Below are positions 14,064-63,068 of a DNA stretch of 64,000 nucleotides, piece by piece. Position 1 is the first letter of the stretch. Every line of letters begins with the position of its first letter. The notes beneath the pieces are model-generated. The model saw nothing but the letters and a program-made list of their open reading frames with translations, was not told the origin of the DNA and made no database searches. The position numbers and the translations under genes are program-made. This DNA is from Ophelia neglecta. Lineage: Eukaryota. The stretch is from assembly GCA_965285935.1 (NCBI GenBank), contig OZ260664.1, forward strand, positions 69,626,001 through 69,690,000, given 5' to 3'.

Positions 14064-14357
14064 GCACAGGTGTGGCGGACATTGTCAGGCCAGAAGGACA
14101 GCGGCTGGAGGGCTGACTAAGCCATCATGCCTTACGTCTACTCCGACAACGTCTGGTTCCACGTAGCCATGCAGGCCAGAAGGACTTGGGCTCGCGACAG
14201 CACAGAGAAGAGCGGCGGCAACACATGTTTCGGCTCTGTAGCAGCAACCAATACATATAGACTTAAGACAGGGCCGCTGTCTGACCGGTCAGACAGCGGT
14301 AACACCGTCCAGCTTATACTCAGCCAGTCATTGGCCAATGATTGGTAAAACCGATAG
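14064..14357 (+). ncRNA. Candidate structured non-coding exon (block A copy)
   Basis: Acceptor-like TTTTTTTCCAG| at 14063 and donor-like AG|GTAAAT at 14357/8. GC-rich island made of hairpins (14072-14162, ~14200-14242, palindromes 14274-14299 and 14324-14345). AGAAGGACTTGGGCTCGCGACAGCACAGA aligns to AGAAGGCCGAGAGCTCCCGGCGAGCTCAGA at ~61213. Confidence 0.5.
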
Positions 14358-15147
14358 GTAAATTACGACATCCGGAGAGAGCACACAACATCATTCCCTC
14401 GTCTCTTCCTCGTTTCTAGAACTGTTGTTGCTTCAAAACGAAGAAACAAAGATTCATTGGAATGTTTATTCATTCGGCCATCCATTTGACCAGTGCAGTC
14501 ATTTGACCAGGCACCATTTGACTTGTCAGAATGTCCATTTATATTCTCAATCTTAACCATACGGTGCCAAATACCTATCTGGTTTATTAGTTTGACTTAT
14601 GACAGATTAATTTAGGGAATAAAGGTACCACAATATATTTGACAGCAGGCTGATCGAGGCATCTACGCAAAAGTGTCTGACTCCTTGTACCACTAACGCA
14701 TATAACTTACACATTCAACAATCCTGAGATCAATTTTGCTAAAAAACGCAACGCAAGTTAAATGCAATGCTTGTTGATCGCTTCAATGCTAAAAGTAGGA
14801 TTAGGGGAATCTTAAAATGATGAAACAAACACCACATTATCAGGAAGTACCCGTCAATGGTGTATGTTTGAAATCGATTGCTATCCACTTTGAATTATTA
14901 AAAGGGCCCCTATTTTCTAGATGGAAGTCATTTGACATATTCTACATACTTAGGATCATTATTAGAACGTTAGGGCTAAAACCACCCCTGTGGGACTCAA
15001 TGATACTATGAGGCAGAAAGTCGTCATAGCTTTCTCCTAATCAAAGTGAGTGCAGAAAAAAGCTGGCCGACTCTTACGTCTTGAATGAAATTTACGGACC
15101 AATGCCTATGAATTCTTAAGGTTTAAACAGAACGAAGTAGACAAAAT

Positions 15148-15373
15148 GGCTATTAATTAAACGTAGCGGTGCGGAAACTATGCGGACGCGGAGGTCATAG
15201 GCATTTCAGAGAAACAAGAAGCAAAAAAGCGTCAGCAAGGCTATGGTTAGGGCTGAGGGTTAATTTCAGGGTTAGTGGAAGGGTTAGGGACAAACCTTCT
15301 AGATATAGTGATCTGTTCTAATTTCGGGATTTACCTCCGCAAGGCTCCGCGCTTCCGCTTTTAATCAAAAGCC
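15148..15373. mobile_element. MITE with 8-bp TSD and internal telomere-like GGGTTA(G) repeats
   Basis: Direct repeat GACAAAAT at 15140-15147 and 15374-15381. Imperfect TIRs GGCTATTAATTAAA..GCGG..GCGGAGGT / ACCTCCGC..CCGC..TTTAATCAAAAGCC. Internal GGTTAGGG, GGGTTA, GGGTTAG, GGGTTAGGG. Confidence 0.8.
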
Positions 15374-18300
15374 GACAAAATAAACATTCTTCAAGTTGAT
15401 TCAAGTACAATACACGATTTGAGTACGTGTGTAGTCAAATAGGATTCTATAGAGCACAAAGAGAGTCAACCGATGCTTATCATCTTCAATCTATGTGTTC
15501 AGGAACTAGCTGTGATTCAGTTAACATCAATACATGAACACGTTATTCTCCGTGCATTTAAACGATAGTGTTTCCTACTCCACTCTACTCGGCTCTTGGT
15601 CTACGGTATTGGGTAATATCTGAGACTGTTCAGTGATGAGACTGGTGTAACCACCATCCTCCCGAAATCAATTTTAAACTATCGCTATCCTATATTATTG
15701 TATGGAGAAAAAATAGAAAAAAATTAAGCGAGATCAGTATCCGTACCTCGTTATGTGATTCATATACATAGCTATGTTGTCCTACTAAATTTCCATAAAT
15801 TACACTGTAAGACTGGTACCCGGTATATTTTAGCCTTTTGTAAAATCGATATTCTTCCTACACCCAGGGCGCTCTACTGGATAGGAGACTACAGAAGGGT
15901 AACTGCTCAAAGCAGACCGAGTCTGTCAAATCCAGAGGCAACAGTGGTGGGATACGGCTCTGTAAGTACTAATTTGGTAAGAATATATTATCATCATCAA
16001 ACCAAACAGGAAACTTTGAGCTGTTAAGGGGGTTGCATCGAATTTCCTTAATTGAGTTTTCATCAGCTGTTTTTTTTCTGCAAACAAAATATAAGGAAGA
16101 AATGGCAGTTATTGTTTATTGTAAAGTTCCGTAAGATTCATCAGTTTGCCTGATAGCTTACAATTCAGATCATCATGAAGGTTGTTAGTGCACAACCCAA
16201 TACTGGTGTATAATTTTCGATTTAAATCAGATTGGCTTTTAGAAATTCTAAAACATTTCTCTTACACCAAAGCTGTTTTATGTTGTTAAGGACCTGGACT
16301 TGAAGCCATTTGATCCAATTGTGGAGTGTCTTCCATTATCTGGTCACTGTTTAATATATTTCCATCTCCGACACATTTCTTCCCAAGGCAGGAAATGAAC
16401 CTGTCGATCAACAGTGTGCTAAATTGGTGATATATCGGGTTCGACAAAGAAATAATAAATGTTTGGGTTTAAACTTGCAGGCATAAGTAGAACTAGCATA
16501 CAAGCGTTTTGAACAGATGTTTATATGTTAAGATTTGTTTGTATAATTAATTTTATCATATAACTGGTATTTTCTTCTTATAATTCCCAGATACACCATA
16601 TTGCCAGAATCTGTTCTCGTCTTATATCGAATTTAAATAATATATAGAATCTTCCTTAGTCTATCACCTCTAACGGGATGTAACCATTGGCAGACTTGTC
16701 CCTTTCTTAAACAATCAGGCATTGGATTGTCAATATTACCAAAGGCTGATCATCCATAGTCAGCCTTTTATAGTAATAACTATATACCGGAGGCAATCTT
16801 GTTAATTGTGTTCGGTTAAAAGCATACTAGTATCATATTTGGGACGTCTTGTTGGCGCTCTCCTCTGCTTGGAATGTCAGTGTCTTATCTATATATGTGT
16901 TGCTTAGGTCAATTGTCATTTTACTACGTAACTATATCTTGCAGATTTACCTAGGAATGAACAACTCGAGCAGCCGCCTTTTACATGTGTCTTCATTACA
17001 TGAGTAGCACTCTATATAACAGAAATGGCGCTGTCAACCTGTCTCACAAGGAAGTGTCTATATCTACAGGTATTTAGCCCAAGAATGTCATGAAAAAATC
17101 TCTATGGAAGCTCAATATAATAATAAGGAGCGATTTAATTTATGCTTGCTGTGGAAATGTAAACAAATAATCCTGTGCGCACTATAGGTTATACGTCACA
17201 AATCTTTTGGGTTTTTTTTTGCATTTCATATTCAGAAGTAGCCAACTCATTCCAAAAATAGGACATGTGGTTCTTTTTTTGACGCTACGTATGTGGAACA
17301 TTTCGGATCAGTGAAACGATATTATTTTGGAATGACACTATGTTATTTGAACTTTTACTACCATATTTTAGAGACCTCGCAATGAGCCACCTGCAAACAT
17401 GAGCTAACATGATCGTCAAGCCGATGGGTGCCGCTATCAAAGACGAAAGTTGTCGAGGTCGAAGGTCAAGCTTGCACTGTTACTTCCAAATAGTGGATGT
17501 CGCAGTTTGTGTCGTGTACATGTGATTGGTTTAACCAGGCAGTGTTTAACTGCATTTCAATAGACTCTTCAGGTGACCATTTGAATGCATTTGTGTAGTT
17601 TGGACAATGTATGAAGTGAATGCTAATGAAGAGGAACAAATGGCTGAGGGGCTGCTGAAGAAGATGGTGAGTCAACTATCATGAGAGGGAGTAAGGTTGT
17701 TTGCCCCCAGAGGGCAATTCATGGTTTACCCGCAAGGCTAATCCCCTTCAATTTGATGTAAGAACGAATGCTCTTGTATAATTATAAATCAGCCCATCTC
17801 TTTCACTTAATCCACCAAAAGAGACTGTGTTTAGTAGTTGGTCATGTACAGCGGCAATCATGGTGGGGCGAACATCGTGCTGTAGTTGTAATTAAGACTT
17901 ATTGTGGACTAATCAAGAATACACAGATGTCGCCGGAAGGAATGGACAGCCCAACAGACGTGCTAGCTATAACCGCAGAAACTCCACTCTAGCAGCATAT
18001 TATTCTCCATCGAATAATGAACGAAGATAGTGTAACGGTAATTATGTGTTTGGAATAATGTTGAATAGTGAGGTGCATTTCAATTGTTATCAATAAATTG
18101 GTAATTTTATTTTATATACCATAGGATAAATTTCATTATATTATTCCTATTTATATCCCTGTCTGGTTGTGTGGCCATATTATGGCGGAGTGCCTGTAAA
18201 TCATATTGGATCCATAAGGCTGATATGTGGTAACAATCGACTTTCCCATTCTCTGAAGAAAGAATTATAATGGTAGCCAGTTTATATCAATAAAAATTAC

Positions 18301-21095
18301 AAATACTTTTGTAAACTTATGAATGGCCCAACTGTCAATGGTAACTTTCTGGGTTGTTTCTATTTTAACACAATGTACATAACCACGACAGTAAAGTATC
18401 GAGCAACTTGCATTTCCCAAATATTAAGTTTGATGTTATGAAGTGTAATATTGTTTACCAGGGTATATTCTATCACACAATGAGCATAAAGAGTCTACTA
18501 TAACTGCTCTGTGCAATCCTTTAAATTTTCTGTAAGGACTCTGCGTCTGGGCGTGACTGAATGGTGCGTGGCGTCGCGGCCGTGGAGGGCTACGTGAGCT
18601 TTGTGGCTGGATGTGGCCAAGGCGATGGGCTAGGGTCAACGCGTTGCCGGGAGGTTTTGGGCTTTGGGGCTTGCGCCCCTTGGGCAGTAATTGCCTTGAG
18701 GCGTGGCGCCCCTCGGGCATTGGCTTATGCATCAATATATGATTAATTAATACTGTGTCTGATTGTACACATGTGGACTTACTGTTTTATCGGTTATATT
18801 TTGTTTACATTGCCGTGTTCAACTACAGCCAAAACATCATTTATTATTCAGAAACGCATATAAACTGTAAGCTTGTCGCTGTCATTTGTGTAATTGTTTG
18901 CAACACCTTATAATTTTTGTCAATAAAAGATTAAAATAAAACTAATTCAAAAGCGTCTGTGCTTGACAGAAAACGTGATTCAAATACGACACATTTTGGT
19001 ATCATGAGAAATGTATTCTATCATACGAATGGCTAACATACCTATTGCCAACACTGATCATTTTAATGACATTTATTCACTACTTGTGTTAATGTTAAGT
19101 GTAAAACCAGGGTATATAATTTGACATTAACTGTCAAATATGTTACCTATTTCCCTTAAGTCTTAACAATATTTCTAATTGGACTTATTCCATATAGGTT
19201 TAGTATGATACGAATGATTTTAGACATATAAAAATAAGTTCAGTTACTCGTTCTACAGACCCTTTGGTTATGGTCGCGGTTCTAACAACTAGTATTAAAG
19301 TGTAGACTAATAGGACGTCCAGCAAATACTCATTGTATGGTGGGGAATCTAAGATGCAACATTTGCAGACTAGCAAAATACTGTGTGATTTGGATTCGGC
19401 TGTATAAGCTTACCCTTCTGACCAGATGAGGTCATGATTATAAGGCAATTTCCATTGTATATGTTAAAGATTTGCTCCGGATTGGTGTAAGTAGACGGGT
19501 CATTGATAGTACCCGCTTAGATTGAACAGATGGCATTAAATCAAACCATGGATTACTGCTGACTTTAGGGCTAATTTGTGTTATGAGGGGAGTTATAACT
19601 TGCTTAATGAATTTATGTCACGCCGGAAAAATGGGATGTCATCGTAGGAACACTGCATACAATTGAATATCCTAATGAATGGCATCCTCATTATGATGGA
19701 GAAGACCTACAGTTGCATGTAAAATACTTCTTTCCGCGCGAGTGGTATAGGCAGACATTGTCTCTTCTAGTATGTGATGATATTGAGGGTACAACTTGCA
19801 TTTAGCAGCAATGTTGAGGTACATTCAGCGATTTGGTTCATTCTCGCCTATTAAATAGCCCTGATCATTGCACTAGCGGTGTGATAAAAATGGGGTATAC
19901 TTAGTCTATTTAATAATTTAAACCATGGACGAGTGTTTAAATTAAAATACTCTGATTTAAAATGATCTGAGATTTGTCAAACTGCTCTCAAAACATTTTA
20001 AATAATAATAATAATGATAATTATAATAAAAGTATATTGATATTAATTCTTATAATGATCTTAATATTAATACTAGTAATGGACAACTTAAATCCTTTTA
20101 TTTTACGTTTTCTAGTCCATCCTGACCTAATTAGGTGATATTTTATGGACAGCTGCGAGAACACACTGGTTAACTTTTCTGTGTTCCCAGTATCGAGCTA
20201 CATGAATCAAAACTACCACTGGAAGCCAAATTGAGTGATTTCGTATATGAGAAAGAGGTTATGTTTTTTCTTGTGTCTGATGAAAATATTGAGTATTTTA
20301 AACGCTCAGATTATCCCTTAACGAGTGCAGATATCATCGAATTGCAAAATTGCAGATAGCATGTCAAACAATTAAGCTATATGAACACAAATACGTGGCC
20401 TTCTTGAGAGAAAGAAAAGTGATGTGTTTATTCCCCGCGCCGTGCCTGAAATGCCCGGTATAGCATTTACAACTACTTGAAAACAAATATATATTTATTG
20501 AGCTCTTGCAACAATTGTATGATCACAAATAATATGCGGCCCATTTAGTAATTTGGCAATATTTATAAGGCTTTAGCTTAGCCCCATTACTTGGAGTATT
20601 CTTAATTCCCCGTGGATATTATCTGAGTTTTTTATTAACCGTAAAAAGTTCTCTATTATTTTGAGAATCCACATTGGGTTAGCATCAGTGGTGCGCTTGA
20701 CTAAAAGAAACGTGTTAAGCAAACAAAATGATGAGGGTCCTTTACATCTGCTCCGTCCAATTCTGATGAGAAAACTTAACTTTCTTACAGCGCAAATTTA
20801 AAATGCAATCGTCAATGTCGCTTCCTGCAAAAAAATAAAGTGCTCTTCACAGTCAAGAGACACATATATGACATAAAGGTGTGCTTCATCCACACGGGAT
20901 TGCATTCATACTTTGAGTGAGACACGTGCGTGTGTTTTTTGTAATTGCTGCTTGTTTTCAAGATCCTAAGGTGCCCTACCGGTTTCTTTGGGCAGTCTTT
21001 GACTATCACGCCGAGTGGCGCTCTTGAACCGTTGGTCACTTGTTCATCGTATGAAAGTGCACCGCTAGTGTATGGTAAGGGACAGGCAGAGCTAA

Positions 21096-21390
21096 GGGAC
21101 GGACCATTAGATATCTAGGGGGGGGGGGGGGGGGGGCAGAGAACTTGGCTCTAGTCAGGAAATTTTTTTTCATGAATAAAGTTGACAGAAAAATTTTTTT
21201 CACCAGAATCTGCCAGATTATTTATTTTCTCTATATGATATATTTTTTTACTTGAAAATAATAGGCAGATTATTTTTTTTCATATATTTTCCTGGCAGAT
21301 TATTTATTTTTGAGAAAATCGAAGCCAGAAAATTTATTTTCATTTTTTTCTGCCCCCCCCCCCCCCCCTAGATATCTAATGGTCCGTCCC
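21096..21390. mobile_element. PIF/Harbinger-type MITE (295 bp)
   Basis: TAA TSD at 21093-21095 and 21391-21393. Perfect TIR GGGACGGACCATTAGATATCTA followed by a G-run and CAGA, mirrored at the right end. Internal CAGA(T/A)(T/A)ATTT.TTTT subrepeats. Confidence 0.93.
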
Positions 21391-24300
21391 TAATAATGAA
21401 AGCATTGGCTAACGGCGCATTTATAAAGCAAAGTCGTTTGATCCACTGGTCTTATATTTGTGAGCTGATTGAGGTGATGGTTTTCTTGGTCCGGGTTGTC
21501 TCGTCTAGGTAATCCATCATGCCTGTAGTCTTTGATCTAGGCATCCAATATTAAATAGATATGATGCCTATATCCTAGGCTCTCTTGAGTTCATCTTGGA
21601 ATTGCTATGCATTTTTACAGGTTTCCATTACATACTTATCCCTGTTGTTTCACTACTGAGGAGATTAAACGGGCCTACTCTTTTACTCTTTAGTACGCTG
21701 GGCCCTTTATATACTTGTGTGGTCTTGTGAGACAACTTTATCCTTGCTCTCCACATTTTGATGGAGTATAGCATATTGGAATCTCCTCGGGGTTATTTTA
21801 TCTCTGCCCTACGTTGACCACTTTTTTTGACTGTTTCTTATTGAAAAGAATATCAATTATACAGACGTGAGGCCTAATAATGAATATACTACTTGGATTG
21901 TAATTAGTAGCTTTGAAATACGATGCTTTTTACCATTGACCAAACACGAATAAACTACGCCCAACGACATATTTTGATGTTCCTTTGACGACATGCTACA
22001 TCAATATGTTTTTCTGTTTTTGCAGACCAAGTAGACCATCTGCACCTAATGGTCCCTGGTGACCATAATATACATAGCAGCTTTTAAATTATGTGTACAG
22101 TAGTACTTATGGTGTCGCTCTTCGACAGCCGAAATGTGCCCAGGCGTGAAGTATCCGCTCTTTCAGAACTGTCCCAAACACCGTCTCGATTCTTCATATG
22201 GATAAGAAAAAAAAACCACAATATCCAAAATTACATTAAATGCCTGACAGAAAAAGTTGTTGTGCTAAGGTTCATCAAGCCAATACACAATGTTTTACCG
22301 GAAGAAATGGTGAAAAGGAGAACCGCATTTAAGCCATCGGGGTTTTTCTAATCTTATGGACGGCCTCATGAGTTTTTGAAATAAGGCATGAACTTGACTT
22401 AATTTCATTTTTCGGCAATCCGATCCTGCAGAGCAGGCTGGCCGGTAAGTAGTAGTAGTACCAGATACAAGGCCAGTAATACTCATTAAAGTATCTTTTA
22501 AAAGGAAAAGCCTTTTCTATGCGTCTCTGAACTTCTATTTATTAATGTTTTAAAAAAATTACAGATTACTTATTCTGGAAGATACAATGATCCCCCGGAA
22601 GCGTCACCATGCGTTCCAGAACACTCTCTCAAGACCATTCACCAAACTCGCTGATGTGACGTACCCATCAATTTGCAATTTGAAAATCACATTTCATCAG
22701 GGGACCGTATACTTTTTGGGCCGCTTAGAACTCGGAATATCAAGATAGAAATATCTGTTTCAACTACATATTCCGCACCTAACTTTTGAATACAGCGAGT
22801 TGAACAAGGACAACAACTTCCACTGTACTATTTTAGTAGTTAATTTGTACTTAAAACGTTTGATCTCTTTTTTTAAAATGGCAGTCACGTAAATTTACTC
22901 TCAGAGGATTCAATCCTTCTAGTCTCAAATTGGCAGATTTGACTATGGTATTAACTACTGAAAGCCTAAGAGTAGTGTCATTTGGTTTATTTGTACATTT
23001 GCACTCCAGAAAGAACACATTCAGTAAGTATAAGATATAAACTTCAATGAGGAGACACGTGCCTTTATCGTGTTTAACAACATTGCACCTTTTTAGCGTT
23101 TGAACACTTTTAAACAAGACAAAAGGATACCTTGGTTTTTGGGGATTTAGGTTTTTCCAGTGGTGCGTTCTATTATGGCAACTATTTCTATGATTACCAT
23201 GACTTGCTTTCGGGGGGACAATAGCAGTCGGTAAATTCGATCAAGCTGCATCCAGCCATTTGAAATTCAGCTAATAAATGCTGGGCCGGGACAATTAGAT
23301 CATTGTGCCTCATACATTATTTATTTTATAGTTACGCAATTTAGGAAATGGGACTTATTTGTCCATATCTCCATCTTTTATTTTGACAGAGACATGTGGT
23401 CTATCAGATTCGCTATCATCATTTGCCACCTACTTACGGACAGTTCCACGAACCCTAGATCCGTGAAGGAAGATCAATTTAAATCAAGGACTACCTACTT
23501 TGATAACGGGTTAAGCTTGTATGTTTTGTTCGTGAATAGGTACAAATAAGTCACCTAGCCCAGGCTTCGGGGAGGCGTCTTGATCTACTAAGTAACTGTT
23601 TATCGATTCTGGTAACTGTGCCATAAATATGGATGGTCCAAATACAAATGTTTTAAAGAACTCTTTACCTGAATGAAGCTTATTGTATTCGTTTTCTCCG
23701 TTAATCTCAGTAACGATGGTAATTTACAAATGCTTTAGTTTTCTTTGACCAAAAATAGGCGGTAAGAGCTAGTTAAATAATTGACGTGAAAACTGTTCAT
23801 CGGTGTTTTTGTTCTGTTTAAACAGGAGCACTTAACTTACATGATATTGTGCCAATCAATAACACCCAGAGAGAGCCAGGCGACATACAACAGCGGACAT
23901 TAGCCATCAAACTGATACAGCCTCCAGAACAAAGGAGCTGATTCTGAGAGCACGCTGATCCCTGAAGACTAATATCAATACTACGCCTTTGTTACTAAAA
24001 CCATTGGACGACTTAAGTGAGATTCGTCAAATCTGTTGGGATTATTCAATTTCATTTGATACTATATGATGATTTAACCGGGTTTCTCTTGTTTAAGGTT
24101 ATTACATAGTTTACTCGCTTATTGAATATCAAATTATCCACCATAATGCTAGCTCGAAAAATAAATCAGATTTTAAATTATTTGGCTTAAGAGTGACGGT
24201 AGGTTGGTTCCGAAATGTAGGTCAGTTATCAAATAATGTTCATATTATAGCTGCAATGAAAACAACTGCATTCCCACCAATACTTGAATAATACCCAGAT

Positions 24301-25673
24301 TAACCGCGAGACAGGTAGATGACCACGTGACAAAAGGTGAGGTGATGGTTACTTAAATTATTCTAACAGCTAACACTTTCATCTCGAATTTTCGTTAACA
24401 TTTACGGTGAATGGGGCTTTATGGTGCAGCTTTTAGCTATCTGTAGCTTTAATATTGTCCATTTGACCTTTGCCCTCTAGTATAATTCCTTGGCAATCCA
24501 CGTATAGACACATGAAATATTCAATCATATCCCGGGCTTGTTGTTTCCCTGCAGCTAACGGTTTTCTGATGAATTCCGACAGATTTTTTTTTTCAATATT
24601 ATCGGCTAATAATTTTGCATTGTCTGTCGGGCATCCACATCATTAGCTTTCTTGATTAAACCTTGCCTTTTTCTGAGATACAGAAAAAGGCAGCTTTGAC
24701 CTTTGATACCCTTATAGTGTATCCCTGTGAAGGATTTCATATATATATATACAGCAATATATTTCCGACTGGATTCTCATGCAGCACGCTTTGCGGCTAC
24801 TGTAGAATCGATTTCCTCTCTTCGCTCCGAGCTCGCCACTCGAGCGGAGATTGCCAGGCCAAGAAAGCAACTCGGAACACAGAATCTTGACGCCGACAGC
24901 GCCGGGATCGCGGCAGCTTAACCTTCTCAGTGACGAATTATTATCATCCCAAATTTGAGCATCTTAGTGCATAAGGTCATTTATAAATTGCACCTGATTC
25001 CGCTGATCAAGTCCTAATACGTTCATAATTTGCAAGTGATATGCCTTATATATGCTTTGGCCTTTACTTGATGAGTAAAAATACAAGATAAGCAATTCTT
25101 GTACGAGCATAATGAATTTGTTCAAAAGGTTTCCGATATGTTAAGAAACTCGCATATTAATGCACGAATGTGGCATTGAATGCATCGATATTGTCAATCG
25201 ACTATACTTGGAACTGTTTTGTCAAGTTGCACCGGTGTAAAAATATACACTGCCCACTGAAAAAATATTCCCATGGCCCGGACAATTGAACCTAGGGATA
25301 GAATTTCGGTAAGAAATACTGTCGCTGCAAAAACCTCCCCCACCCCTACCGGATGGTCATAATATATGTTACAGTACAATATGTCCGTCGAACATTAAAT
25401 ACGCGGACAGTATATTTGGGCTCTTCAGTAGTAGTATAAATTGTCCTAGGTTGTCCGCCAGACAGCTCAAACTGGGATAAGGTGTCCCCGGCAAACCTCC
25501 TGTAATGTCATTATCCTAAGGCATCATAAACTGGTTCAAAATTGTCCCACGAACAAATGCTTTTAGCCAGGAATAGCAGTCCTTTCGATATATCGTTAGT
25601 TCTTACCGGAATACTACTCTATATTGTAGACACCATAAAATAAATTGTCATCTGCAATTAATCGCTAGTGTAG

Positions 25674-33360: not shown

Positions 33361-33364
33361 CCTG

Positions 33365-50200: not shown

Positions 50201-53200
50201 ATTCCGTACACAGCACCAATTTTATTTCTTAATTTCCTTGCCTTGCCCATAAAGACATTTTAGTTTGAAACTTTTTTAACATGCAAATTTCTGTGTTCAA
50301 ATTTCTGTGTTTCCTGTGAGTTCAATGTCAATTGGACCGCGGTCTTGGGGCTCAGTGTGTAACAATGGCGTAGAGGTTCACCCAGTAACTCTTATGGCTT
50401 TTCTATCTAGTTATATCAATAACATTTTGAGACTTTGTTTATTCCATCAGTTCCATTGCTTTCGAAGAGAAAAGTTTCTAAACCGGCAATTGGTTCGGTG
50501 GGATAAACACTATGAACTTTAAGAGGGCAGTTTTCCTATCATCCGACTTGGTGCGCAACATGTTCTTGGATCTGTGTTTAAGAAAAACAACGATTGTTTG
50601 GATGATATACATGTGCTTGGATTTTTGAAGTCCTTATCGAAAACACACTGGTTCCCTGAGAGTTTTTCATTGGTTTTACATCATTTTTACTAGGGGCAGT
50701 CGCTTTTCTATCCGTAAAGTCAAGTGAATACGTAATGGGATGGAGCTCTTTAAAGTCATGCTAACTGCTTACGGCAAATACTCAAAGTCTGATTAAGAAC
50801 TGATTCCCATGCATTCTGCCTCCTCCGTAGGTCCTACAGAGGAATGAAGAGATGGCCAAAAGGCTTTTAGGTTTATAAAGTTCCATCAGTATTCAGAGGG
50901 CTAGCGGCTTAAAGAGATTGAATTTAATGCAAACTTACGTTGGGCATATATGTCCTAATAGTGGCATTAAAACAAGTCTTTCGGAGCATACTTATTGAAA
51001 TCCAATGTCGAACAGGCTATGGCAGCAGTGAAATACAGAAATCCTAACATATTAAAATTCATCAATTCACCTGTATTGTTTTTTTTTAATTGTTGATACA
51101 AACGGTCATACTAACACAGCACGTGTTGAAACGTATTCACACAGAGTTTTGTTTGGATCTGCACTAGTGTTACAATAACTGATTGAAACCGAGCATGAAA
51201 GGGTTTCAATCCATATGAACTCCTCAGTAAACAAGATTTTTTTATTTCTCGCCAATGTCATCAAGGAAACAGTTGAATACTCTCCAATACAAGTGATTTA
51301 CTGTTGGGGCGGAGCTGGTTATTGATGCATGTTGGACCCTTGGCCCTTGTTCATGATGTTTTTCGGATATAATTATAATTTAATTTAATTTTTCCAAGCA
51401 CCATGATAAAGTAACCCCTTTTGTTGAATTAGAGAAAGGTAAATGCACCAGATTATGCCTTTACCAATTTGCTGGGGGAATTTGTTTTTCTTTGTTTATT
51501 GTTGCCATTGTAATGTTAGTGTATATCACTTTGTATGTGTATTTCATTGAGGCTTGGCATTTAAACAGCTTGTATCGCAATGGTTTTAATCTTTAAATGG
51601 TTTTAAATTTTAAAGAATAGTTTTACATAGGCGTAATTTCTGTCATGCAAAAAGCAGGGGTAGCTGTAAGAAGTAAAGGAATTGGTAGGAATCCTTGTTT
51701 AACACAACACTGTACATGTCGCTTCAACGCAGTTTAAGTCATCGTCACGACAGTAGCACGTTAGTATTAAATTGTTACCACATCGGTACGACGTCTGGGA
51801 GATAATAGTTAAAATAACGGCTGCAAAGCGTGTCTCTCATTCGTTTCATGGCTTTTTCGCTGCGTTCTTATTATTTTTTAAGTCGAAGGTATAACTTCAT
51901 CCTAGTGTGATGTGGCCATAATGATTTTGCTGTGTCTGACAGGTATCCGGGTTCTTTTGCTTTTAACCATTTTATACCAAAGACAGATTGGTCTTTCTCA
52001 AAAAGGAAGCATGTAGTCCCAAGTATGATGAGTTTGCTATAATTCCAAACTTAATCACCTTGGAGTCACAAGACAGTTGTTGAGAAATTGCTGTGCGAAC
52101 AAGTAATGAGCGGCGCTGTTCCACACCTCGCATCGACTAAAGAGCCGTATTTTAGTTGCAACGCCTCAAATCATGTGCTGTGCAGCCGAGATCATGAGCT
52201 AGGCTCAACACATGGATAACACTCTGCCTGTACATACTCGGGAACCTTCTCCTTTGTGTTAATGTGTCCGGTGAGTCTATTTTTTATTATTGTTTACTAA
52301 AAATGAGAAACCACTCGACATGCGTTCCAAATTCAATTTAGGAGCATTATTCATTTGTTTGTTTAGGTGGAGTAAGGAATTTAATATAAGAGACAGAATG
52401 GTGTCAATGCTCTGTTATTTAGGTAGGAAGTACCATTCATTATCTGCTAGTATTTGCTGGAAAAATAAATGGATCAACTAATATTCTTGCATCTGTGACC
52501 ATGCATTTCCCTTATATAATAGCAACCTTGGTAAAAAATAACAACACAGGTTATGTTCTGAATAGAGACCATCATAGGACTCCATTTAACCAGCCAGTTC
52601 AGACGTTACGGCAGACAGTGTCATCAGGCGATGTTTACATATTATTCTCTGCTGCTGCTCCTGTCGGTTAGCGGAAAGAATGTTCATTGCCATCGGGGAA
52701 AATCTCTCAGCAATAGCTAATATGAGACCTTCCCTATGTGATAACAAAGATAATTTGCTACTGCAATGCGCAATATGAGTGATTGGATGAAAACTATAAG
52801 GAGCTTCGTTCCCTGACATTATCAAATACGTTCTTGTGCAGCTTCATGTGCGATCACTGATGAAGTTCTCTGTACACGCTGACATGCATTGAGTTTTGTA
52901 AACTAAGACCTCTTGACGCGCTGCTCGGGTATTGACTCATTCAGGGTAACGCGACATGGTGATGGCATATCTTGCCTTTGTACTTTCCGGCCCAGTGGTT
53001 CAATGTTGGACATGACGTGAAGCAAATCCGTCTTAGTCGTCTCCGTGCAGCAATTAGTCCTACTATTACCTGGCCATTATAAACATTATAAAGGCTAATG
53101 CATGCTTTAGACTTGTCCATTTGCTAGCAGCGCACGATATAAGGCAGGAGGCTCATCCACATGAGGTACTATCGTTTTTACACACTCAATGCTGCGCACG

Positions 53201-56200
53201 TCCTTTATATGGACCAAATACAGGAGGATTGTGTTTACAACAATGGCTATAAACAAATAGTCGATACATAATCAATGGAATATTAGGGTGTTATGTTATT
53301 AGAAAAAAAGCCGGCTTATGTGGATACTTTAGGGAGATATTGCATGATCGACGTGTATTTCTCGAATGCACCACGGACCATTAAATATTGTTGCTCTGTT
53401 GCAGTGGCTGGATTTTATGTACCACTCAATACCTTGACGATACTCAGCTGAGTTTCCACTATGCACTTTGCATGTTCTACTTTTAATCGGCGGATTGCGG
53501 GATGCCACATTGGCGATTGGGGTTCTGGCTCTTTGCTTTCGACGTTATTAGCTGGCTTTCCATGAGTTCATCTCTCCGATGGCTAGCTACTTTTGCAGTT
53601 ACAAGGCAGTATTATATTATCGGTATAGGGACGTAATCCTCTGGCGAATTTACATGCATGACCTTATATAATAAATCGTGCATTACTATTGACAGGCTAG
53701 AAGCCTGGCTCCCACGAGCCCATACCTAATCTCAGGCTGGTAATTACAGCTCCCAGTGCCGCTACACATTATGCATATTCTGCATCAGCTCGATTGTGGA
53801 TAAAACCAACACTTGATGTTTTGAACTCAGGGGATGCGAAGGCGATGGACAGCGGAATACACATCCTTGTAAAACTGGAAATATAAAAAAACCACGCAAG
53901 ACCCATAATAACACATTTTACCAGTTGGTATTGTCATTGTATATGGATTTGGCTAATACGGAATCTTATACTTTTCGTGTTTCTTCTTCAAAAGGCCGCG
54001 TGTTAGACAGAATATATCAACCTGTATTTACGCGTGTTTCCCATAAAAATATATCAGTAATAGATGGAAATGTGTGAGATCTATACACAAGCTGTATAAA
54101 GAACATTATGAGCTTTTAAATGTGATGTTGCATTTGGTATTGCTCTTTTGCTTAGATGCGATATTTGCAATAAATCTTAACCACGTGGTACCATACGCAC
54201 AATGGGCAGGACGAGACATATAAGAAAGAGAATGTGGCATTTTATTGCCAGTGTCTTCAGAATGCTTATTTTTAAGAATACTGTCACATCTTTACCCGAA
54301 ATGTCTCAAACCCATAGAATATTTTATGCAAAGGTGACATTTTCGTTACGAGGTTCTCATTGGAACATTTATTTAAGCATGCATTTATAAGAACCTGTTT
54401 ATAACGATCCATGAACTATACGGGTTAATCTGATTAGAAAAGAATTATCCAATTTGTAAAAACAATTTTGGCAATAAAAGACTTTGTAGTGGTTTACTCT
54501 AGATGTACACTATCATCCTTCTACAAAATATTACCTGCTTGATAAGTGTATCTCTTGCTTACATGCGTTTCCCTTCTGAGACTGCAAGTTAAGTCATAAA
54601 TTGTATGCCTACATCAGGAATAGCGACATACAGTTATTTGTAAAGCAAGCTTGGATTAATAAAAACCTTCATTCAGAGATAGGAATGTGTTATGCATCTT
54701 AAATCAGTAGTTAGCGTGGCTATGGCGATCGTAAGTTTTACGTGTTTGAAAGGCACGATATGTTAATTCCAGTGGCTCAAACAAAAGATAAATGCATGGA
54801 TGAGATATGTTTTAGACCCTGCTTTACTTACTAGTAAACGTTCTTGAATATTTTGCTTCTGCTCATTACGGGGACATCTGCCGACTTTTCATCGACAACA
54901 GGGCAATACTTTGTTAGTTGGTTGCTTCTGTCATCATCCTTGTTGGTTGATGTAAACTATTGGTTTATAATTCGGTACTCATCTTTAACTTTACTTTCTG
55001 TCAGTTCACCAAGGTTTATACTTGCAGATGGGTTACTATGTGTTTGATTTAGCCCTTTTGACTTTCCAAAATAACCATATTCTAAAATCCCCTTTGTAAT
55101 TTAATTTCACCATTGCTACTTATGTACCTCAATTCAATGATGTTCTCTAAATGCAATTGCTTCCATTTACTATTTTACTCAATGGTGGCTCTGTTCCTTC
55201 GAGAAGAAAAGAACAACTCATTTTTGGATCACACATTACGACGATGATGGAATCAGGCTTAACCTTTCCAACACTCTGCCGAAAACTTGGCTTCTTTGCC
55301 CAAAGACATACAAACGCAACTAAATTCTCTTCAGTGTGAAGTCTACAAGGTCAAGCTTTATAACTGCTATCTAGCAGGTCTTTTCAGGTACTCACATGTA
55401 ACAATCTTCTGAATAGTTGAATGCTTACTACCTGTTAAGAAATGTTGCAGGTTCAATATGGTAAAAGGTGTGTATGGTTGAGAGTCCAGAGGCATAGGTG
55501 CCTCAGTCGTTGACATACATGTAGGGGTAATGCCTTTACATTGAGTTTATACGACCAATCAAACTTGGAATACCACACAGTTAACTATCCACTCTCCTAT
55601 TTTGTTATCTTTTTACAGGAATTATCCTAAACCATATTCGGAATAGTGCAAATTACCAGAATGAATAAGTTAATATCCATAAATCCAGATGTACTTGTAC
55701 AGACGAACATGCCTGCCACAGACAAAGCCTTATCGAAGGCCAGCTGGCTTTCATGAGCTCTTATACATACGATATATGTTATACGATTGTATACTACTCC
55801 CTTGATGCAGCCAACTTGTTGGACCGAGATAAATTATGGTTCCTGCGATGCCGCCAATGTTCGATCCTTAGATTAGCATCAGTCATCAATGAGTTAGATC
55901 GCTTATAAGCCATCCTAACCGCTAACCACAAAATGCAAAGCTAAGCTTGAGGAGCCATTCCAATGCACCATAGCTATTAAGAAGCTCCCACACAGCTGTA
56001 AAAGTAGGCCGGGGGCTATTGCCCATATAATCACCCATATATCTCTCGCAGGCTATATGAACCAGGAAACGGGAAATATAAATTGGCATTTCTTATAAAG
56101 CGTTTTTGTGTGTTGTCATAGAGCTTGCCTGGAACAAAGTAGTTCATCATATGCATGCATATTATAAAATATTGTATAATGTATATTATACAACCCATGA

Positions 56201-56863
56201 AATTGACCAAAAACCATACATATTGGCAAATCGTAAGATGAAAACCACGTCTGATTTAAATGTGTACCTTACTGAATAATAGGCCTATCGGATGCCGCGA
56301 CAATTTTAAATTCTTCTCGCCTGAGCGTCGTAAATAGGAAAACATTTAATTAATTCTTATTCGACTTAATTTGAAATAAATAAATTGCTTGACACGATAT
56401 ATTCTGCTGCTTTGATTAAATTTCATGTGAAAGTTAAAAGATATGTAACAGGCACCCAATGGTTGGTTGAACAGATACTGAGATCGTACTGAATCCAGAA
56501 TAATGAAATGATCTTCATACTATCGCAAAGCCGGTTTCGGTGCTTACAAATATCAAGTTCGCGATAACACAACTAGTGGTTCCAAGCCTATTTATGAGGC
56601 TCCGGTCGTTCTAATGAGGGAATTATTTGTTTCTTATCAGACACATCTGTACCCACTGTACCATAGACCATACAATATACTGCAGTCGTTTTAGGTTTCA
56701 TTTTACGGCCGAAAGATGAAATGAGAGGGCCGATAGATGGTTTGTTGGAGGATGGATGTCGTATCAAAGAGGTTAGAAAAAAATGGCAATGGCGCTTAAC
56801 CTACTCTTTTCACGCATTTCATAATTGAACATTTTAATATTTGAATAAATTTGCAAATTGATC

Positions 56864-57075
56864 GGTGATATATCCGATTCACATGGCTGCTTATCCATCG
56901 TCCCGGCTACGATCCCTCAGGTCATCCTCTATCGGCCCAAAGCGTAGCGAAGCGGAGCGAGGGCCGACATATGATGACCGGAGGATGACCGGGGATATGG
57001 ACCCTTGGGCTCAAGATGGACCGATAGTTCTTCAGACGTGTCATAGCCATTACATATATATATATATGTATATAT
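56864..57075. mobile_element. Fold-back (palindromic) MITE-like element ending in (TA)n
   Basis: Nested inverted repeats ATGGCT/AGCCAT, CCATC/GATGG, GGTCATCCTC/GAGGATGACC and TCGGCCC/GGGCCGA around a central GCGAAGCGGAGCGAG. Confidence 0.6.
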
Positions 57076-57976
57076 CTCAACTTGGGAATTTAGACTCTGA
57101 AGAAATCATTTGTAAGGCAGCTTTCGAAACGAAAGCTTGTTATAAAAGGAATTACATGTATAGTTATATTTTTCGACCATAGCAGAAACAAAACTTGTGA
57201 AATATATCGTAAGTGTAATTTCAAACCAGTTTTCGAGCGATAGCAAGACAGACAGATCCGTAATGGCACGAGGTGTGCCTGACAACACGTTCTATGCCCT
57301 ATAAGTGCTGCAATTTGAGTCAATTTATGAGAAAGGTAAAGGCAACCGTAAAGTTGACAGAAATGGCTCAGCAGAGCTAGGCCTTTAAGGTGAATGTCGC
57401 TACGGTTTATTTTTAGCAAAATGAGACTTCGCCATGTCCGGTGAAGCCGTTGGAATAAACATAATCAAAAAAACTACATTGTATACAGATTGTGCGTGCA
57501 AGATTCTATTAGGAATCGTGAGAGATACTTTCTTAAAATTGCGTTAACCATTGGCGGGGAAGATCTCCTGTTGGAGACCTCTATATTCACTAAGGCATAC
57601 ACAGCATTGAGTATACAGTATAAATGTGTCAATCCGGTGTAAAAATAATGTTGATATCCTTTTCATATGTGCTGAAGAACTGAAAATAAGCGTACTGATT
57701 TATACATTACAACGCCACCCCACATTTGTTTTGTGGTTTGATTCACATCATGTATACCGTAGGTCTTCCTTATTGCAAATGATAACTTGTGTTTATTCAA
57801 TTTAAGCAGGGTTTCGCGCTAACACACTTAACCTTATTTATGGAACTAATTATGGAGGGAGAAGGTGATTAAACACAGCACACTAGACACAATTGTCGTT
57901 AAGACTAACAGAACACAACGTATATTTCATCGCTGCCATCGAATGTCCCTCAACTGTAGCTTTCAGAGCCTTACAC

Positions 57977-57977
<1 letters not shown>

Positions 57978-58010: not shown

Positions 58011-58017
<7 letters not shown>

Positions 58018-61000
58018 ATTTCAAATAAAATTTGATATTGCGTAAGCTGTATCAATAATTCGATATCCCTTTTTGATTCGTCGACCATTTTAATTCTCAA
58101 ATATATATGAGTTACTTACATTTCACCTTGGTTGTAACAAATCTACATGTATTTCGCTTAATGTTGTATATCTCATTCCTTTTTTTCTGTTCATGGATGG
58201 AGTATTGTCAACTTTGACCTTTTTGAAGCCAACTTGTTTTTTTTTGGACACTAAGTTCTCTCCTGTCGAGTTTTATTTTCACGTTTGGCCGAAGAGATGT
58301 CTTGCAACCTGTCCGTGTATTTTTTTCCCGAAGAATCTTAAGGCTAATGCATGTCTTTTAACTCAGCCGTGTACCATAGAGGTGGCTTGAGAGAGTTGTG
58401 ACGTCGGTAGACACATCTTCCTGTCGTACTTACAAGTATACACTTTTATGTACGCCATTTGTGTATGCTATCGAAATGATGACGGGGACCTTGTTTTAAT
58501 AACACCGCGGTGCACAAATAGTGCCGTTTGGTTCTTGAAGAGTTCGGTGACCCATGTTATTTGAACAAGTAACCACCCATTTATTTGCCCATGGGAGATA
58601 TTGCATTTAAACATACATATATATAGAAATATACGTGGATGGAAATCAACACTGAAAATCATATACATCAATAGAAAAATTGGTTCATGTCCCGGAGATA
58701 TTGCGGTGGCTTTTTTGTTGGGTCCCGCTCAATAACATGCCAAACTATAGCTTAGCTTCCATCAACCAACAGTGTTTAGTCTTAACCTGTGGATTAAGGG
58801 ATTTTGCAGAATATTGGATGTAACTGATATTTTTTGGTTTAAATAGAGCCCCCCCCCCCTCTTCAATGACCAATAACTTTGCCTCAGAATTGGCTGACGT
58901 ATAATCGATCTCCCGATGAAGCCCTCTGGCGACTTGCCATGGGTGAACCTGCTATTATAAATAAATCTTTTTTTACATTGAAACACTAAGAGCCTGGCTC
59001 CCGCGAGCTCAGCTATAATCTCTGGCGGCCGATTGATGTGTCCGATGTGTCTACAAATGGTGCGATTCTACCCTAGCTCGATCACAGATACCAATTAATG
59101 TCGTTGAACTCCACGGCGATTTCGACTCGTCGTGAAGCAGGTAACCGTGTATCACATTTATGAGTATTGAAGAACGAGCCAGGGCGACCACCACGGTCAA
59201 GGTTTACCAAATTGCACTTGTCTTTGAACCGAAAAGAAGTCAACGAGCAGTTTGATATTTATACGTGTTTCCATCGCAGGAAACAGGAATTTAGACAATA
59301 TCCAACGGAATGCCCTCTATATTTAGCACCATTCGAGCTATAGTATATTAGTTATGAAGCAGAGAATTTGGGAACCGTATAGACAAAGTACATATACATT
59401 GACGCTGGCCACTGAGTGAATAATGAAAATATTACCTACTCCCTTCGGAGCGCTTCCGAACACTTATTGGTTTAAACGGAGCCAAGCTTGCTGCGATAAT
59501 GCCATATCTGGCACCTGGATAATCTCCAAAATCCTATTTGTTTAATTCAAGTCAATTCCCTATTCGTTTTATTCCAATACGTCCAATTCCCCAGTTCAAA
59601 ATAACAATACGCCATGGCTTATATTATCCGTGGTTCCTTGGGAGATGTGTTCTACACTGCATCTGAGAAGTGTCTTAACTGACTATAGATTAATTGTACT
59701 TGTCCGCAAGAATTGTTCTGGTTCCTATTGCCAATTCGCAACCAGGACGGACAACGGATAGAGTTGCATCAATGTCATAGACACGGTGTATGTTATTTTT
59801 AGTCTGAATCCAGTGGAGAAAAATAAAGCAGAGAAAATATGATAATGGGTTAAAATGGGGACGTTCCAGTTAAAAAAAAAACTTGACTCGAAATTCAAGA
59901 TTCGGTAATTAATAACACGCTTGTCAATGACCTCCTTCTCTTTGTAGTGAGGGTAATGACACAATAAGAGTGTGTGGGGGTAGGGCATACCTTGCCCTTC
60001 AATTTCTGTACCTGCCTTTGAAGGCGATAACAGTCTTTAGACATTTAAAACCTTTTGTCTGCAATAGGTTTACAAACGAGCCAGCGAAATAAGTATGGGG
60101 AACTTCACTTTCCGGCGATTGGTCAGCCTCTCGTGCTAGCATGACAGGCCTTCTTCCTGCCAGGACACAGTGGCTCGGCAATTACCGGTCCATGACCTGT
60201 CGGACATGACAGGGGATATGCGGCGGTGAACGCGAGTTCTGGGTGAAGAATACATGTAGTCAAAAGTATAATGGGAGGGGGGGGGCGAGTTGGGGGGGGG
60301 GGGGTTAATGGATATACAGCAGAGGGAATCGTATTAGTGACAGGATTGAACAGAACTTGGATTGCTGTTTTTTAAGAATATTCACAAGGACAAGCTGGTT
60401 TTCGAGTTGAACAACTATCACTAAATTAATGTTTATTTAACTCCGTGCGGGTTTTGAGTGAATAAAAAACCTGTTTCCTGTTATAAAAACAATTTGCTAG
60501 CTAACCCATTTCCATTTAATGACTTTCTTCTTTGTTATTGCCGATTTGACTACTCAACAAGTTGAGTATTTAAGCTTTTCACGCATTATAGCATTGTTTG
60601 ATACGCCTAAGGACTATATTCCATATAATTCATTTTTTCCCTGCAAATGTTTTATACAAATACATGACCAGTTGATCAAGATGTTACAATCATTTGATTC
60701 TCAAACCTCTTGTGCTCGCTGTAAAAAAAAACCAACCCTAGTGCGTCTCGCTTTTTGAATGGCACTCCTTAACTGGAGTTAATAGGGTCACGCCATTGTA
60801 ATGGGCGAACGGTTTCCTTCTGATAGGTTACATAATGAATTTGGCATTCAGTCAATAATTTAACACTCATTCTTTAAAATGCCCATCCTCTTGATGTTTT
60901 TCGCGGCTTCATTTTTATAATGGTCGCCTTGTTCCCAAAAGGAAACTCTGAATATAGGATATTATATTATTCTGTTGCTCTTTTAAAGCGTTGAGCATTT

Positions 61001-61100
61001 AATAAATGTGGTAAATATATGTTTGGAAATAGGAATCTCATGATCATGGTAAAATAAGAGCCCACACATCCACACTGCAGCTCCATTACTGTAATTGCAG

Positions 61101-61327
61101 TCTGAAGCCAGGGCTGAGAGGTTGCGCCGGAGACGAGTCCGGGGCGCCGCTGTTTGGCGTCGCGGCAGTGGCTGTAAAGCCTTACTGATGTGGAGCTGGG
61201 AGTGTTGTGATGAGAAGGCCGAGAGCTCCCGGCGAGCTCAGACATTAGGCTGTAAGTGACTACCGCCACCAGGATAATCCTAATTGTTCACGTATCTACT
61301 CAGTCGGATATGATTTCCTACACTCCG
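61101..61327 (+). ncRNA. Candidate structured non-coding exon (block A reference copy)
   Basis: TAATTGCAG| at 61100 and CCG|GTGAGT at 61327/8; ~117-nt imperfect hairpin at 61155-61271; the plus-strand frames close within the interval. Confidence 0.5.
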
Positions 61328-63068
61328 GTGAGTAGGCCTACATTATAATGTATTCGCCTTAAACATAACTATGATCCGTGTTCATGTTTTTCTTTAGATC
61401 AAAACATGAGAGAGACATGTTTTTCGAAAAAGGACCGAGAGAGAATGGTGATTGTCTGTAGAAAAAAAGCTTTTAAATGGTACATAGTGGTAATTTACTC
61501 TCAGCTGACATTTTGTGTAAACACAAGTTCACTTTATATATTTGCTTTTCCATATGTGGTTAAAATAGCAAGGCTAAAGATATATGAAAGTGTTAGTCTC
61601 TTAGACGAGGCTATATATGGATTCCGTGAAACTCGCTAAGTATAGGGTATTTGCCCGACAGGTATAAATATACAAAAGTATGCTAATGCTCCTACGATTA
61701 GAGAATTTATAAATTTCCCAACACAGAAAAGCCTTCAAATGCGACTACATGTATTAGGATCCCAACACATATCGGAATGCAGGGAGAATGGTACAAGTGC
61801 AATAATCTATGTTATTGAGCTAGCATGCGTACATCTGTGATATTACATGCCGACGTTGTCTCGTATACATGTATATAACTGTGTCGAACCTTTCTCGCCT
61901 GTTGACTTGCGTGATACTGATCAGTGCACGACTCAATATGAGTTCTTTATTCCCGCCAGGGTTGGACTTTACATCAGTCTATCTATACATTATATGCCTG
62001 GATCGAGTATGGTTAACCATGACCTTTTGGCGCAAATCGTGACATCGGTTCCATCAGGACAACCCGGCCAGCGGCTGTTGATTGTTCGTCTGGCTCGAAG
62101 TGCTGTCCTGTCGAGTTCTTTCACGTTTGGTCTTGTACACGATTCGTCTTTGTATTTCCCGGCTATGCTAAAACCTAATGGATTACTTTATCGAAAGACT
62201 GCATGCGCCTAAGATGTGGCAGGATGCATTTGTAGCATTAGGAGACGCATTAACAAGAGGAGTAAAACCTTTGGCAAAGCTTACTGCTTTTTTTCGTAAT
62301 CAGGGGCTGCAGCCGTAATATGTTTGGCCTTTTCCCACAATCTCGTCACGTAGTAATATTTCAGATATTTGATCACACAAAGCCGATGTCCATGACAGTG
62401 GAAGGAACAAATAGTCTTATATGTACGTACAAACGGGTATATTTAATTTCGGACCACGCCATTTTCCGATATTATGAACATAGGAAACTATAGGCCTATT
62501 GGCCATGACTATAATATGTGATCTCATATTGCAATGAATTTGCCGTTGCTGGCCTATTGAAATTCGCTCAATAACTTGGCGAGGCATAGCTTAGCCGAGA
62601 GCTTAGCTCTCGCCATCCAACAGGTTCTCATGGTAATCAGTGGATTGTACTGAGCAATAGAGGTGATTGTATAGAATATTGGATGCTGGCATTACGTATT
62701 GGCTTTCAATGAGTTTGCCCCCTGACGAGTAGCTACTTGGCCTCCTTGGTGAAGCTATTAAAACACCGCTCGGCCTATCGGCGATAGAAAGCCTTCCCAA
62801 TTTGCCATGTGTGAACTTGATATTATAAAGCGAACATGTTTTGGTCAGTATGATAACCCGTCTCCCGCCCGCCCATTGTCCCAGACAGACCACTTCAGTT
62901 CTCAGCGTCCCAATATAGAGCAAGTTTACTATATTGTAATTGTTATTCACAATTAAACACGAAAAAAACTGCAATGATAGAAAACGTGTGGGTGGTCACA
63001 TTCTTTTTCTTGTTACTGTAGGGTGTGTTCAACAATTTAGGTCGAGGACTACATTTGTTTACATATAA

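Follow-up and report, generated by a model that had tools for sequence, protein, structure and literature searches.

Three tandem non-coding units sharing a donor-like splice motif in a 64-kb stretch of the Ophelia neglecta genome, possibly separately spliced genes

Near the right-hand end of a 64,000-nt stretch of Ophelia neglecta DNA (assembly GCA_965285935.1, contig OZ260664.1, positions 69,626,001 to 69,690,000; hereafter the window, whose own coordinates are used throughout) lies an old head-to-tail duplication that extends on the plus strand from 50.7 kb to the window end and comprises no fewer than three units, followed by what is probably the beginning of a fourth. Sensitive self-comparison and profiles give the array a period of 3.8–5.2 kb, an identity of ∼60% and the block order G-A-B-C. 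A preliminary description of the window had listed nine G+C-rich loci as copies of block A, seven of them ending in donor-like splice sites. The nine loci are not one family; only those at 52100, 61101 and, weakly, 57300 are paralogous. The duplication, the positional homology of the donor motif at which these three A blocks end, and the lack of coding or structural signal are observed directly. We give a probability of about one half to the reading in which the array is a set of separate, tandem-duplicated RNA polymerase II (Pol II) units, non-coding or decayed, that splice internally, with the 57-kb copy degenerating.

The blocks of the array are collinear, on the same strand and on constant diagonals (Table 1). 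Block G lies at 50.7, 55.85 and 63.9 kb, block A at 52.06, 57.2 and 61.1 kb, block B at 52.9, 58.2 and 62.0 kb and block C at 53.4, 58.7 and 62.5 kb; block B recurs outside these units at 46.3 and 48.5 kb, and block G was not detected in unit 3. In an all-against-all tile alignment of the window controlled by 7455 reversed tiles, the 5′ part of block A in unit 1 is 63% identical over 91 columns to 61095–61186, with a score above all of the controls. The donor spacings of 5170, 3887 and 9057 match the duplication diagonals of 5154–5309, 3698–3882 and 9035–9141, and it is mainly on the position of its donor relative to 52270 and 61327 that the homology of block A in unit 2 rests. The distance from block G to block A is 1364 nt in unit 1 (50696 to 52060) and 1363 nt in unit 2 (55850 to 57213), though the spacers no longer align. 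A palindromic or inverted-repeat element (56876–57013) sits within unit 2, just upstream of block A. Profile searches detected no overlooked block A ahead of the additional B copies; a TCCGGT at 47755, within 20 nt of the expected spot, lacks the donor continuation. Block C contains an AT run resembling a TATA or poly(A) element (53660–53720, 58950–59010 and 62820–62880), followed ∼30 nt on by a conserved G+C word containing CTCCC, which together could be a 3′ end or a promoter. A chained-seed self-comparison of the window was uninformative, its control score being nearly equal.

Membership of block A is confined to these three loci by several comparisons. When the nine loci were compared in 36 pairs, each against 200 dinucleotide shuffles, 33 pairs were at shuffle level; the three pairs whose real score was reached by no more than 3 of 200 shuffles are 52100/61101, 38525/61101 (in inverted orientation) and 14064/38525. 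The preliminary description had named GTs that fail to align in a block A alignment among the results that would refute its claim, and in a nine-way MAFFT alignment the GTs do fall in different columns, with zero invariant columns overall. The mean identity of this alignment is 0.287, compared with 0.262 ± 0.019 (maximum 0.302, n = 40) for GC-matched random segments; it just exceeds that of locally shuffled copies (maximum 0.283, n = 40), as expected if only a subset of the loci is related. A profile of the three right-hand A blocks matched only those three in the window and none of the other six loci. No further block A pairs emerged from the tile alignment with its reversed controls, and short words common to the left and right loci failed shuffling controls. 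The description of the loci as G+C-rich holds for six of the nine and not for 22300 (44%), 52100 (49%) and 57300 (41%), which lie outside the patches defined by an objective scan; that scan found 18 such patches in the window, 12 of them absent from the earlier list. What stands of the proposal of paralogous non-coding spliced units thus concerns the donors at 52270, 57440 and 61327, which share a homologous position and a matching ∼70-nt intron-like stretch, and not a nine-member array.

The word TCCGGTGA occurs three times on the plus strand of the window and never on the minus strand, each time at one of these three donors. It is the longest perfect three-way run in 2642 alignment columns, within a neighbourhood of ∼30% three-way identity, and its site is the only donor-like GT common to the three units on either strand of the three-way alignment. 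Past the donors of units 1, 2 and 3, across AT-rich sequence (30–34% GC), TTAG ends at +71, +72 and +70, respectively. The number of YAG trinucleotides (Y, pyrimidine) between +45 and +120 is 2, 2 and 1 in the three units, and in unit 3 the acceptor is the sole YAG from +45 to +130. Among 20000 random triples 0.02% showed a TTAG coincidence within 2 nt, and among 1658 other aligned anchors none did. The GC fraction drops across the donor from 0.47 to 0.30 in unit 1, from 0.44 to 0.32 in unit 2 and from 0.56 to 0.33 in unit 3. The arrangement G/GTRA...TTAG (R, purine) at 68–76 nt occurs six times on the plus strand, three of these being the array donors, and five times on the minus strand. In neutral simulations of three copies of a 4.5-kb unit, with either strand allowed and pair identities of 0.50–0.67, a strict definition (two donors of at least 10 bits, a third of at least 5.8 bits and a shared YAG) was satisfied in 0.08–1.6% of runs, depending on identity.

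All seven donor-like motifs of the preliminary description are present exactly at the positions given there (Table 1), and those at 22444, 52270 and 61327 take the first three places among 3611 plus-strand GT sites under an approximate donor matrix. Across the window, donor motifs are at chance level, with no enrichment over third-order Markov simulations. GTRAGT is the donor consensus recognised by U1; it occurs 27 times on the plus and 19 times on the minus strand (21.8 ± 5.2 expected), GGTRAGT 8 and 1 times (4.2 ± 2.4 expected), and sites of at least 10 bits 9 and 3 times (6.5 ± 2.3 expected). The sole motif standing out is CCGGTRAG, with 3 plus-strand and 1 minus-strand occurrences (0.5 ± 0.7 expected), and two of those three are paralogues. 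For 21% of random points, a donor at least as strong as the weakest one claimed lay no more than 50 nt away. Donors followed by an acceptor 50–120 nt behind number 12 of 78 on the plus strand vs 3 of 65 on the minus strand, the baseline being ∼8%, and the plus strand has a slight excess of T over A; both signals are weak and are not relied on here. A 77-codon open frame without a Pfam match (13296–13526, minus strand) terminates at the strongest donor of that strand (13311; 12.5 bits).

In the reading that we favour, the ancestral unit would have been a small plus-strand Pol II gene with a G+C-richer first exon of ∼210–230 nt (block A), a U2-type intron of ∼70 nt and a downstream exon region (blocks B and C). 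Tandem duplication would have given rise to separate genes, each spliced within its unit by way of U1 at CCG/GTGA and its own TTAG acceptor, and selection would have held the splice sites while adjoining sequence drifted. The 57-kb copy would since have weakened at both splice sites and is probably a relic. The products may be long non-coding RNAs (lncRNAs) or decayed duplicates of a once-coding gene, alternatives that the data do not separate. Transcription, splicing and selection are here inferred from sequence patterns, and the predicted junctions are 52270/52342 or 52367, 57440/57513 and 61327/61398. Separate genes are favoured because each unit has a candidate acceptor 70–72 nt past its donor together with its own blocks B and C, which a design with a common exon would not need; among the options raised in the preliminary description, separate genes accordingly fits best.

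A number of results weigh against this reading. The loose form of the simulation (three donors of at least 5.8 bits and a shared YAG) was satisfied in 1.3–23% of neutral runs, the copies were simulated on a star tree without indels, and the thresholds were set post hoc, with the sites already seen. Coincidence of a plain YAG, found in 2% of random triples, was found at 8% of other aligned anchors. The splice-site scores come from approximate, generic donor and acceptor matrices. In unit 1 the acceptor at +71 scores a low 3.3 bits and stands beside a 7.5-bit acceptor at +96 (52366, giving a 96-nt intron); in unit 2 the donor (5.9 bits) and the acceptor (2.3 bits) are both weak. One of four alignments spanning the site set the 52270 donor apart from the other two, and one alignment paired the 61-kb TTAG with the +96 site of unit 1. 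Block A of unit 2 was not recovered by a leave-one-out profile, and 4 of 100 shuffles score as well. The spacers and the 250 nt past the donors are at shuffle level, in a test that gave p < 0.01 for 2 of 66 donor pairs without any relationship. An upstream acceptor, a promoter element or a poly(A) signal common to the three units could not be established, AATAAA being present in two of them. Given the post hoc thresholds and the weakness of the +71 and +72 acceptors, support for a constrained intron of ∼70 nt is moderate rather than firm.

The alternative that survives best, although we consider it somewhat unlikely, is that an old duplicated intergenic or intronic segment is decaying neutrally, that the donor and the TTAG are chance survivors and that nothing is spliced. 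The patterns of substitutions and indels look non-coding, an identity of ∼60% is near the detection limit, so that patchiness may be noise, and the chance level of donor motifs window-wide as well as the upper figure of the loose simulations accord with such decay. In addition, the other same-strand duplicated blocks (G, B and C of the array, and the families D, E and F described below) share no donor of at least 4 bits, and only one weak acceptor is shared among them. Against neutral decay stand the observation that the best-conserved word of the unit is a top-ranked donor in poorly conserved surroundings, with a length-matched TTAG behind it, and the low frequency of such outcomes in the strict simulations.

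Duplicated cis-regulatory modules are an improbable explanation. Blocks G, A, B and C would then be enhancers or promoters of a gene outside the window and TCCGGTGA a protein-binding word, which would suit the islands of kept similarity amid unalignable spacers, the lack of a recognisable gene in 64 kb, the presence of TCCGGT in two copies of the local repeat family D (36272 and 39934), and the retention of all eight bases in the 57-kb copy even though GTGAAG is a poor donor. Such modules leave the TTAG at +70 to +72 and the GC step at the donor unexplained, and the conservation spans −4 to +4 around the GT, as is expected of pairing with U1.

We consider it very unlikely that the units encode rapidly evolving small proteins, secreted or of the membrane, whose coding exons diverge faster than their flanks. 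Removal of the candidate intron in phase 1 leaves open frames of 70 amino acids (aa) in unit 1 and 106 aa in unit 3, the latter reading 77 aa from an ATG with a hydrophobic stretch, and the open reading frames (ORFs) at 52423 and 61349 have a weak in-frame match (p = 0.005). Unit 2 yields 16 aa, however, start codons are not shared, and the frames of units 1 and 3 are shifted relative to each other; each unit has 33–45 ORFs of at least 45 aa, and 10% of random positions fall within an open frame of 59 codons. A 77-aa ORF begins 9 nt past the unit 3 acceptor, and its only partner is frame-shifted, in unit 1. No frame or start codon is common to the units across the junction. Mismatches between units lack 3-nt periodicity (0.387 at lag 3, 0.374–0.410 at other lags), 32 of 110 indels are divisible by 3, and ORF composition scores are at null level. 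All 373 stop-to-stop ORFs of at least 50 aa in the window are below the Pfam family cut-off (best E = 0.002), so that the comparison with clustered protocadherin and chelicerate sDscam genes made in the preliminary description fails on coding content. None of 116 further ORFs matched Pfam at E ≤ 0.01, the shorter set comprising the 113 splice-bounded ones of 1303 ORFs of 25–49 aa. Database searches for homologues gave no match for ORFs 61841–62209 and 61406–61636 (near lengths) or 41753–42037 (longer lengths). Four matches to ORF 14121–14345 were rejected as weak and repeat-inflated (best single stretch 26–32 bits for the two compared), and two of them carry bacterial repeat domains. Atlas scores of 0.75 and 0.79 are at shuffle level, with no PDB match, and a phage origin was discarded after 52000–54200 gave no match.

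It is most improbable that the A blocks are alternative first or cassette exons joined to a common downstream exon, as a non-coding analogue of clustered protocadherin or sDscam genes. There are indeed three tandem, same-strand paralogous blocks with a conserved donor at their ends, the array runs past the right edge of the window, where a constant exon could lie, and the lack of a conserved upstream acceptor is compatible with first exons; yet six of the nine loci are unrelated, no coding domains were found, and each unit has the candidate acceptor and the B and C blocks of its own already mentioned. A related variant would make the array, with further units beyond the window, an active cluster of first exons that are non-coding, specific to the lineage and served by alternative promoters; each donor would use either its own +70 acceptor or a shared exon beyond 64000, as a non-coding counterpart of promoter choice in protocadherin and sDscam genes, here in an invertebrate. 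We rate this variant no more probable than the common-exon reading.

The array units contain no recognisable structured RNA any more than a recognisable protein, and a small-RNA host with repeated exons is accordingly a faint prospect. In a host of the SNORD115/116 type a box C/D small nucleolar RNA (snoRNA) lies in each repeated intron, and here block B or C would hold a lineage-specific snoRNA or microRNA (miRNA), as in the C19MC or SNORD115/116 clusters. Repeated non-coding units with a conserved donor would fit, as would the five copies of block B, three of which fold into a stem at a roughly matching place, two of them with AAGTGCT. On the other side, Rfam gave no match at gathering score and only TA-repeat matches at E ≤ 1, and scans of the whole window for transfer RNAs (tRNAs) and Rfam families found neither. 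Fifteen candidate stems have z-scores from −2.5 to +1.3, and the five B stems from −1.1 to +1.0; the consensus fold of block B is weak (−3.1 kcal/mol, 8 pairs). Over 106 alignment windows the mean z is −0.05 and structure conservation is at most 0.41, with no conserved hairpin, and the candidate introns are not mirtron-like hairpins. The word AAGTGCT, which we take to be a seed-like word of the miR-430/302 type, is found at 46415 and 62098 (B copies), 57302 (an A copy) and 38805 (near a D copy), and the hairpins there are not unusually stable; the hexamer AAGTGC is not enriched, nor does it favour one strand (17 vs 15).

The six other loci of the preliminary description have no relation to block A and comprise GC patches, one arm of a transposon and donor motifs that occur by chance. 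The island at 14064–14357, which may be a real single-copy exon, part of an unrelated transcript, is followed by a 62-nt intron-like stretch (14358–14419, acceptor 9.5 bits) and, taken from 14064 or 14010, is preceded by a 56-nt one (13954–14009), both flanking acceptors being strong; it contains a 75-codon open frame, a 14-nt direct repeat and a perfect 26-nt palindrome (14274–14299). The donor motif at 22444 continues into an AGT microsatellite. The 28400 block with its donor at 28511 lies inside the right arm of a 675-nt inverted-repeat element, and there is no GC step at 28511. Neither 18740 nor 38720 has a donor-like GT of more than 3 bits from −80 to +120. The 38525 locus belongs to family D, a same-strand local repeat spanning 36183–40060 (copies 36183–36392, 38457–38698 and 39819–40060, with a partial copy at 38952–39087; 61–67% identity), two of whose copies contain the TCCGGT of the block A donors at the positions given above. 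The 38.6-kb copy holds the palindrome TCTCGCGAGA, presumably a promoter-type word, which is degenerate in the other D copies. An inverted resemblance of ∼37 nt between family D (38518–38556, minus strand) and the 5′ part of block A (61113–61155) was matched by 1 of 200 shuffles and reached E = 0.15 in a profile search; cross-profile tests of block D as an inverted block A gave no match, and it is a weak lead.

The window as a whole has a GC content of 38% and a CpG observed/expected ratio of 0.79, with microsatellites and several inverted-repeat elements, and would be eukaryotic, invertebrate-like DNA of non-coding character. An assembly gap of 155 N (33207–33361) adjoins a CT microsatellite, and order across it is not guaranteed. 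Two further same-strand pairs, E (15758–16063 and 24741–25018, 60% identity) and F (17861–18041 and 30847–31039, 69% identity), may be what is left of a more extensive duplication in the left part of the window. Joining E (15.8/24.7 kb) and F (17.9/30.8 kb) into one long tandem unit was rejected, only those two blocks beating the reversed controls. An element resembling a miniature inverted-repeat transposable element (MITE) at 21095–21391 has perfect 39-nt terminal inverted repeats ending in G/C runs. A transposon-like dispersed inverted-repeat family, present in both orientations, is represented by 47241–47562 and its relatives at 10390–10461, 12368–12472 and 24561–24654, and the palindromic or inverted-repeat elements at 37684–37831, 56876–57013, 63048–63536 and 35771–35902 are probably MITE remnants.

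Table 1. Features of the tandem array, the six unrelated loci and the seven donor-like motifs. Positions are those of the window; a slash precedes the GT of a donor motif, and motif ranks are among the 3611 plus-strand GT sites.
Feature	Position	Strand	Remarks
Unit 1 block G, upstream conserved non-coding	50696–50903	+	58% identical over 205 columns to 55850–56055; diagonal +5154
Unit 1 block A, exon-like, 48% GC, ends TCCG/GTGAGT	52060–52270	+	Donor 11.3 bits; leave-one-out profile E = 4e-4
Unit 1 candidate 71-nt intron GT...TTAG, 30% GC	52271–52341	+	Acceptor 3.3 bits at +71
Unit 1 blocks B and C, conserved non-coding, AATAAA at 53670	52883–54098	+	∼60% identical over ∼900–1000 nt to unit 2
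Unit 2 block G	55850–56055	+	Match to unit 1 block G
Unit 2 block A, degenerate, 44% GC, ends TCCG/GTGAAG	57205–57440	+	Donor 5.9 bits, weak, without +5 G; placed mainly by position
Unit 2 candidate 72-nt intron GT...TTAG, 33% GC	57441–57512	+	Acceptor weak, 2.3 bits
Unit 2 blocks B and C, AATAAA at 58960	58185–59394	+	Self-comparison
Unit 3 block A, exon-like, 56% GC, ends TCCG/GTGAGT	61095–61327	+	Donor 11.3 bits; leave-one-out profile E = 2.7e-4
Unit 3 candidate 70-nt intron GT...TTAG, 34% GC	61328–61397	+	Acceptor 7.4 bits
Unit 3 blocks B and C	61990–62941	+	62% identical to 58185–59011
Block G, probable fourth unit running off the window end	63879–63985	+	Profile of the two other G copies, E = 3e-4
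Extra block B copy without detectable block A	46331–46564	+	66% identical to 62046–62195
Second extra block B copy	48467–48669	+	60% identical to the 46.3-kb copy
Single-copy exon-like island	14064–14357	+	55% GC; acceptor 8.9 bits, donor 7.1 bits; unrelated to block A
Single-copy GC-rich patch	18540–18740		62% GC; without donor; unrelated to block A
Single-copy stretch, 44% GC	22300–22444	+	Ends in the window's best-scoring donor motif; unrelated to block A
Inverted-repeat (MITE-like) element	27936–28611		Arms 27936–28101 and 28434–28611, E = 2e-13
Family D member (the 38525 "copy")	38457–38698	+	Local repeat family D; without donor at end
Single-copy GC-rich island	41820–42036	+	Ends AG/GTAAAT (8.3 bits); weak upstream acceptors; unrelated to block A
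Donor motif CGATAG/GTAAAT	14357	+	Rank 68
Donor motif TGGCCG/GTAAGT	22444	+	Among top three
Donor motif CAGGCG/GTAAGT	28511	+	Rank 6
Donor motif GCTGAG/GTAAAT	42036	+	Rank 28
Donor motif TGTCCG/GTGAGT	52270	+	Among top three
Donor motif TGTCCG/GTGAAG	57440	+	Rank 142
Donor motif ACTCCG/GTGAGT	61327	+	Among top three

Among known systems, the nearest kind of object would be a duplication cluster of lncRNA-like or pseudogenic transcripts. In the slncky work, such clusters are filtered out and often derive from coding families (zinc finger, olfactory), and splice-site conservation is likewise taken as a sign of a constrained transcript (bioRxiv 10.1101/031385). The likeness lies in similar, neighbouring, apparently non-coding units, which here are collinear, on the same strand and without a conserved reading frame; those clusters often have a coding ancestry, whereas none is recognisable in this array. 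The C19MC cluster has 46 pre-miRNAs in units of 400–700 nt, a 123-nt exon strongly similar to 37 segments, and spliced expressed sequence tags (PMC2691840). It resembles the array in its tandem units and in having no ORF, and its repeated non-coding exon bounded by splice sites may have a counterpart in block A, whose donor is common to all three units; it differs in that the array has three units of 3.8–5.2 kb at ∼60% identity, without a conserved hairpin or a shared upstream acceptor, and no pre-miRNA per unit was found in the array units. In the clustered Pcdh, UGT1 and GCNT2 genes (PMC1885805) and in chelicerate sDscam genes (PMC9258826), the variable exons or cassettes are highly similar to one another and encode protein domains (cadherin repeats, the UGT N-terminus, immunoglobulin domains); every one of them has its promoter and is joined by splicing to common constant exons. 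Same-strand tandem paralogous blocks ending in a donor are common to these genes and the array, but the blocks of the array do not code for protein, no more than three of them are related, and a candidate acceptor follows each donor by 70–72 nt; the nine loci do not form a tandem array of similar exons, and no Pfam domain was found in the ORFs scanned.

The analysis has corrective value, in that a nine-member exon array shrinks to three. Only the shared-exon reading, which we judge unlikely, would surprise a specialist. Should the three units be expressed, they would be lineage-specific duplicated lncRNA-like genes whose splice sites have outlasted nearly all of the surrounding similarity; as such they would exemplify constraint at the level of splice sites and offer a lead for annotation, while being of a well-known type.

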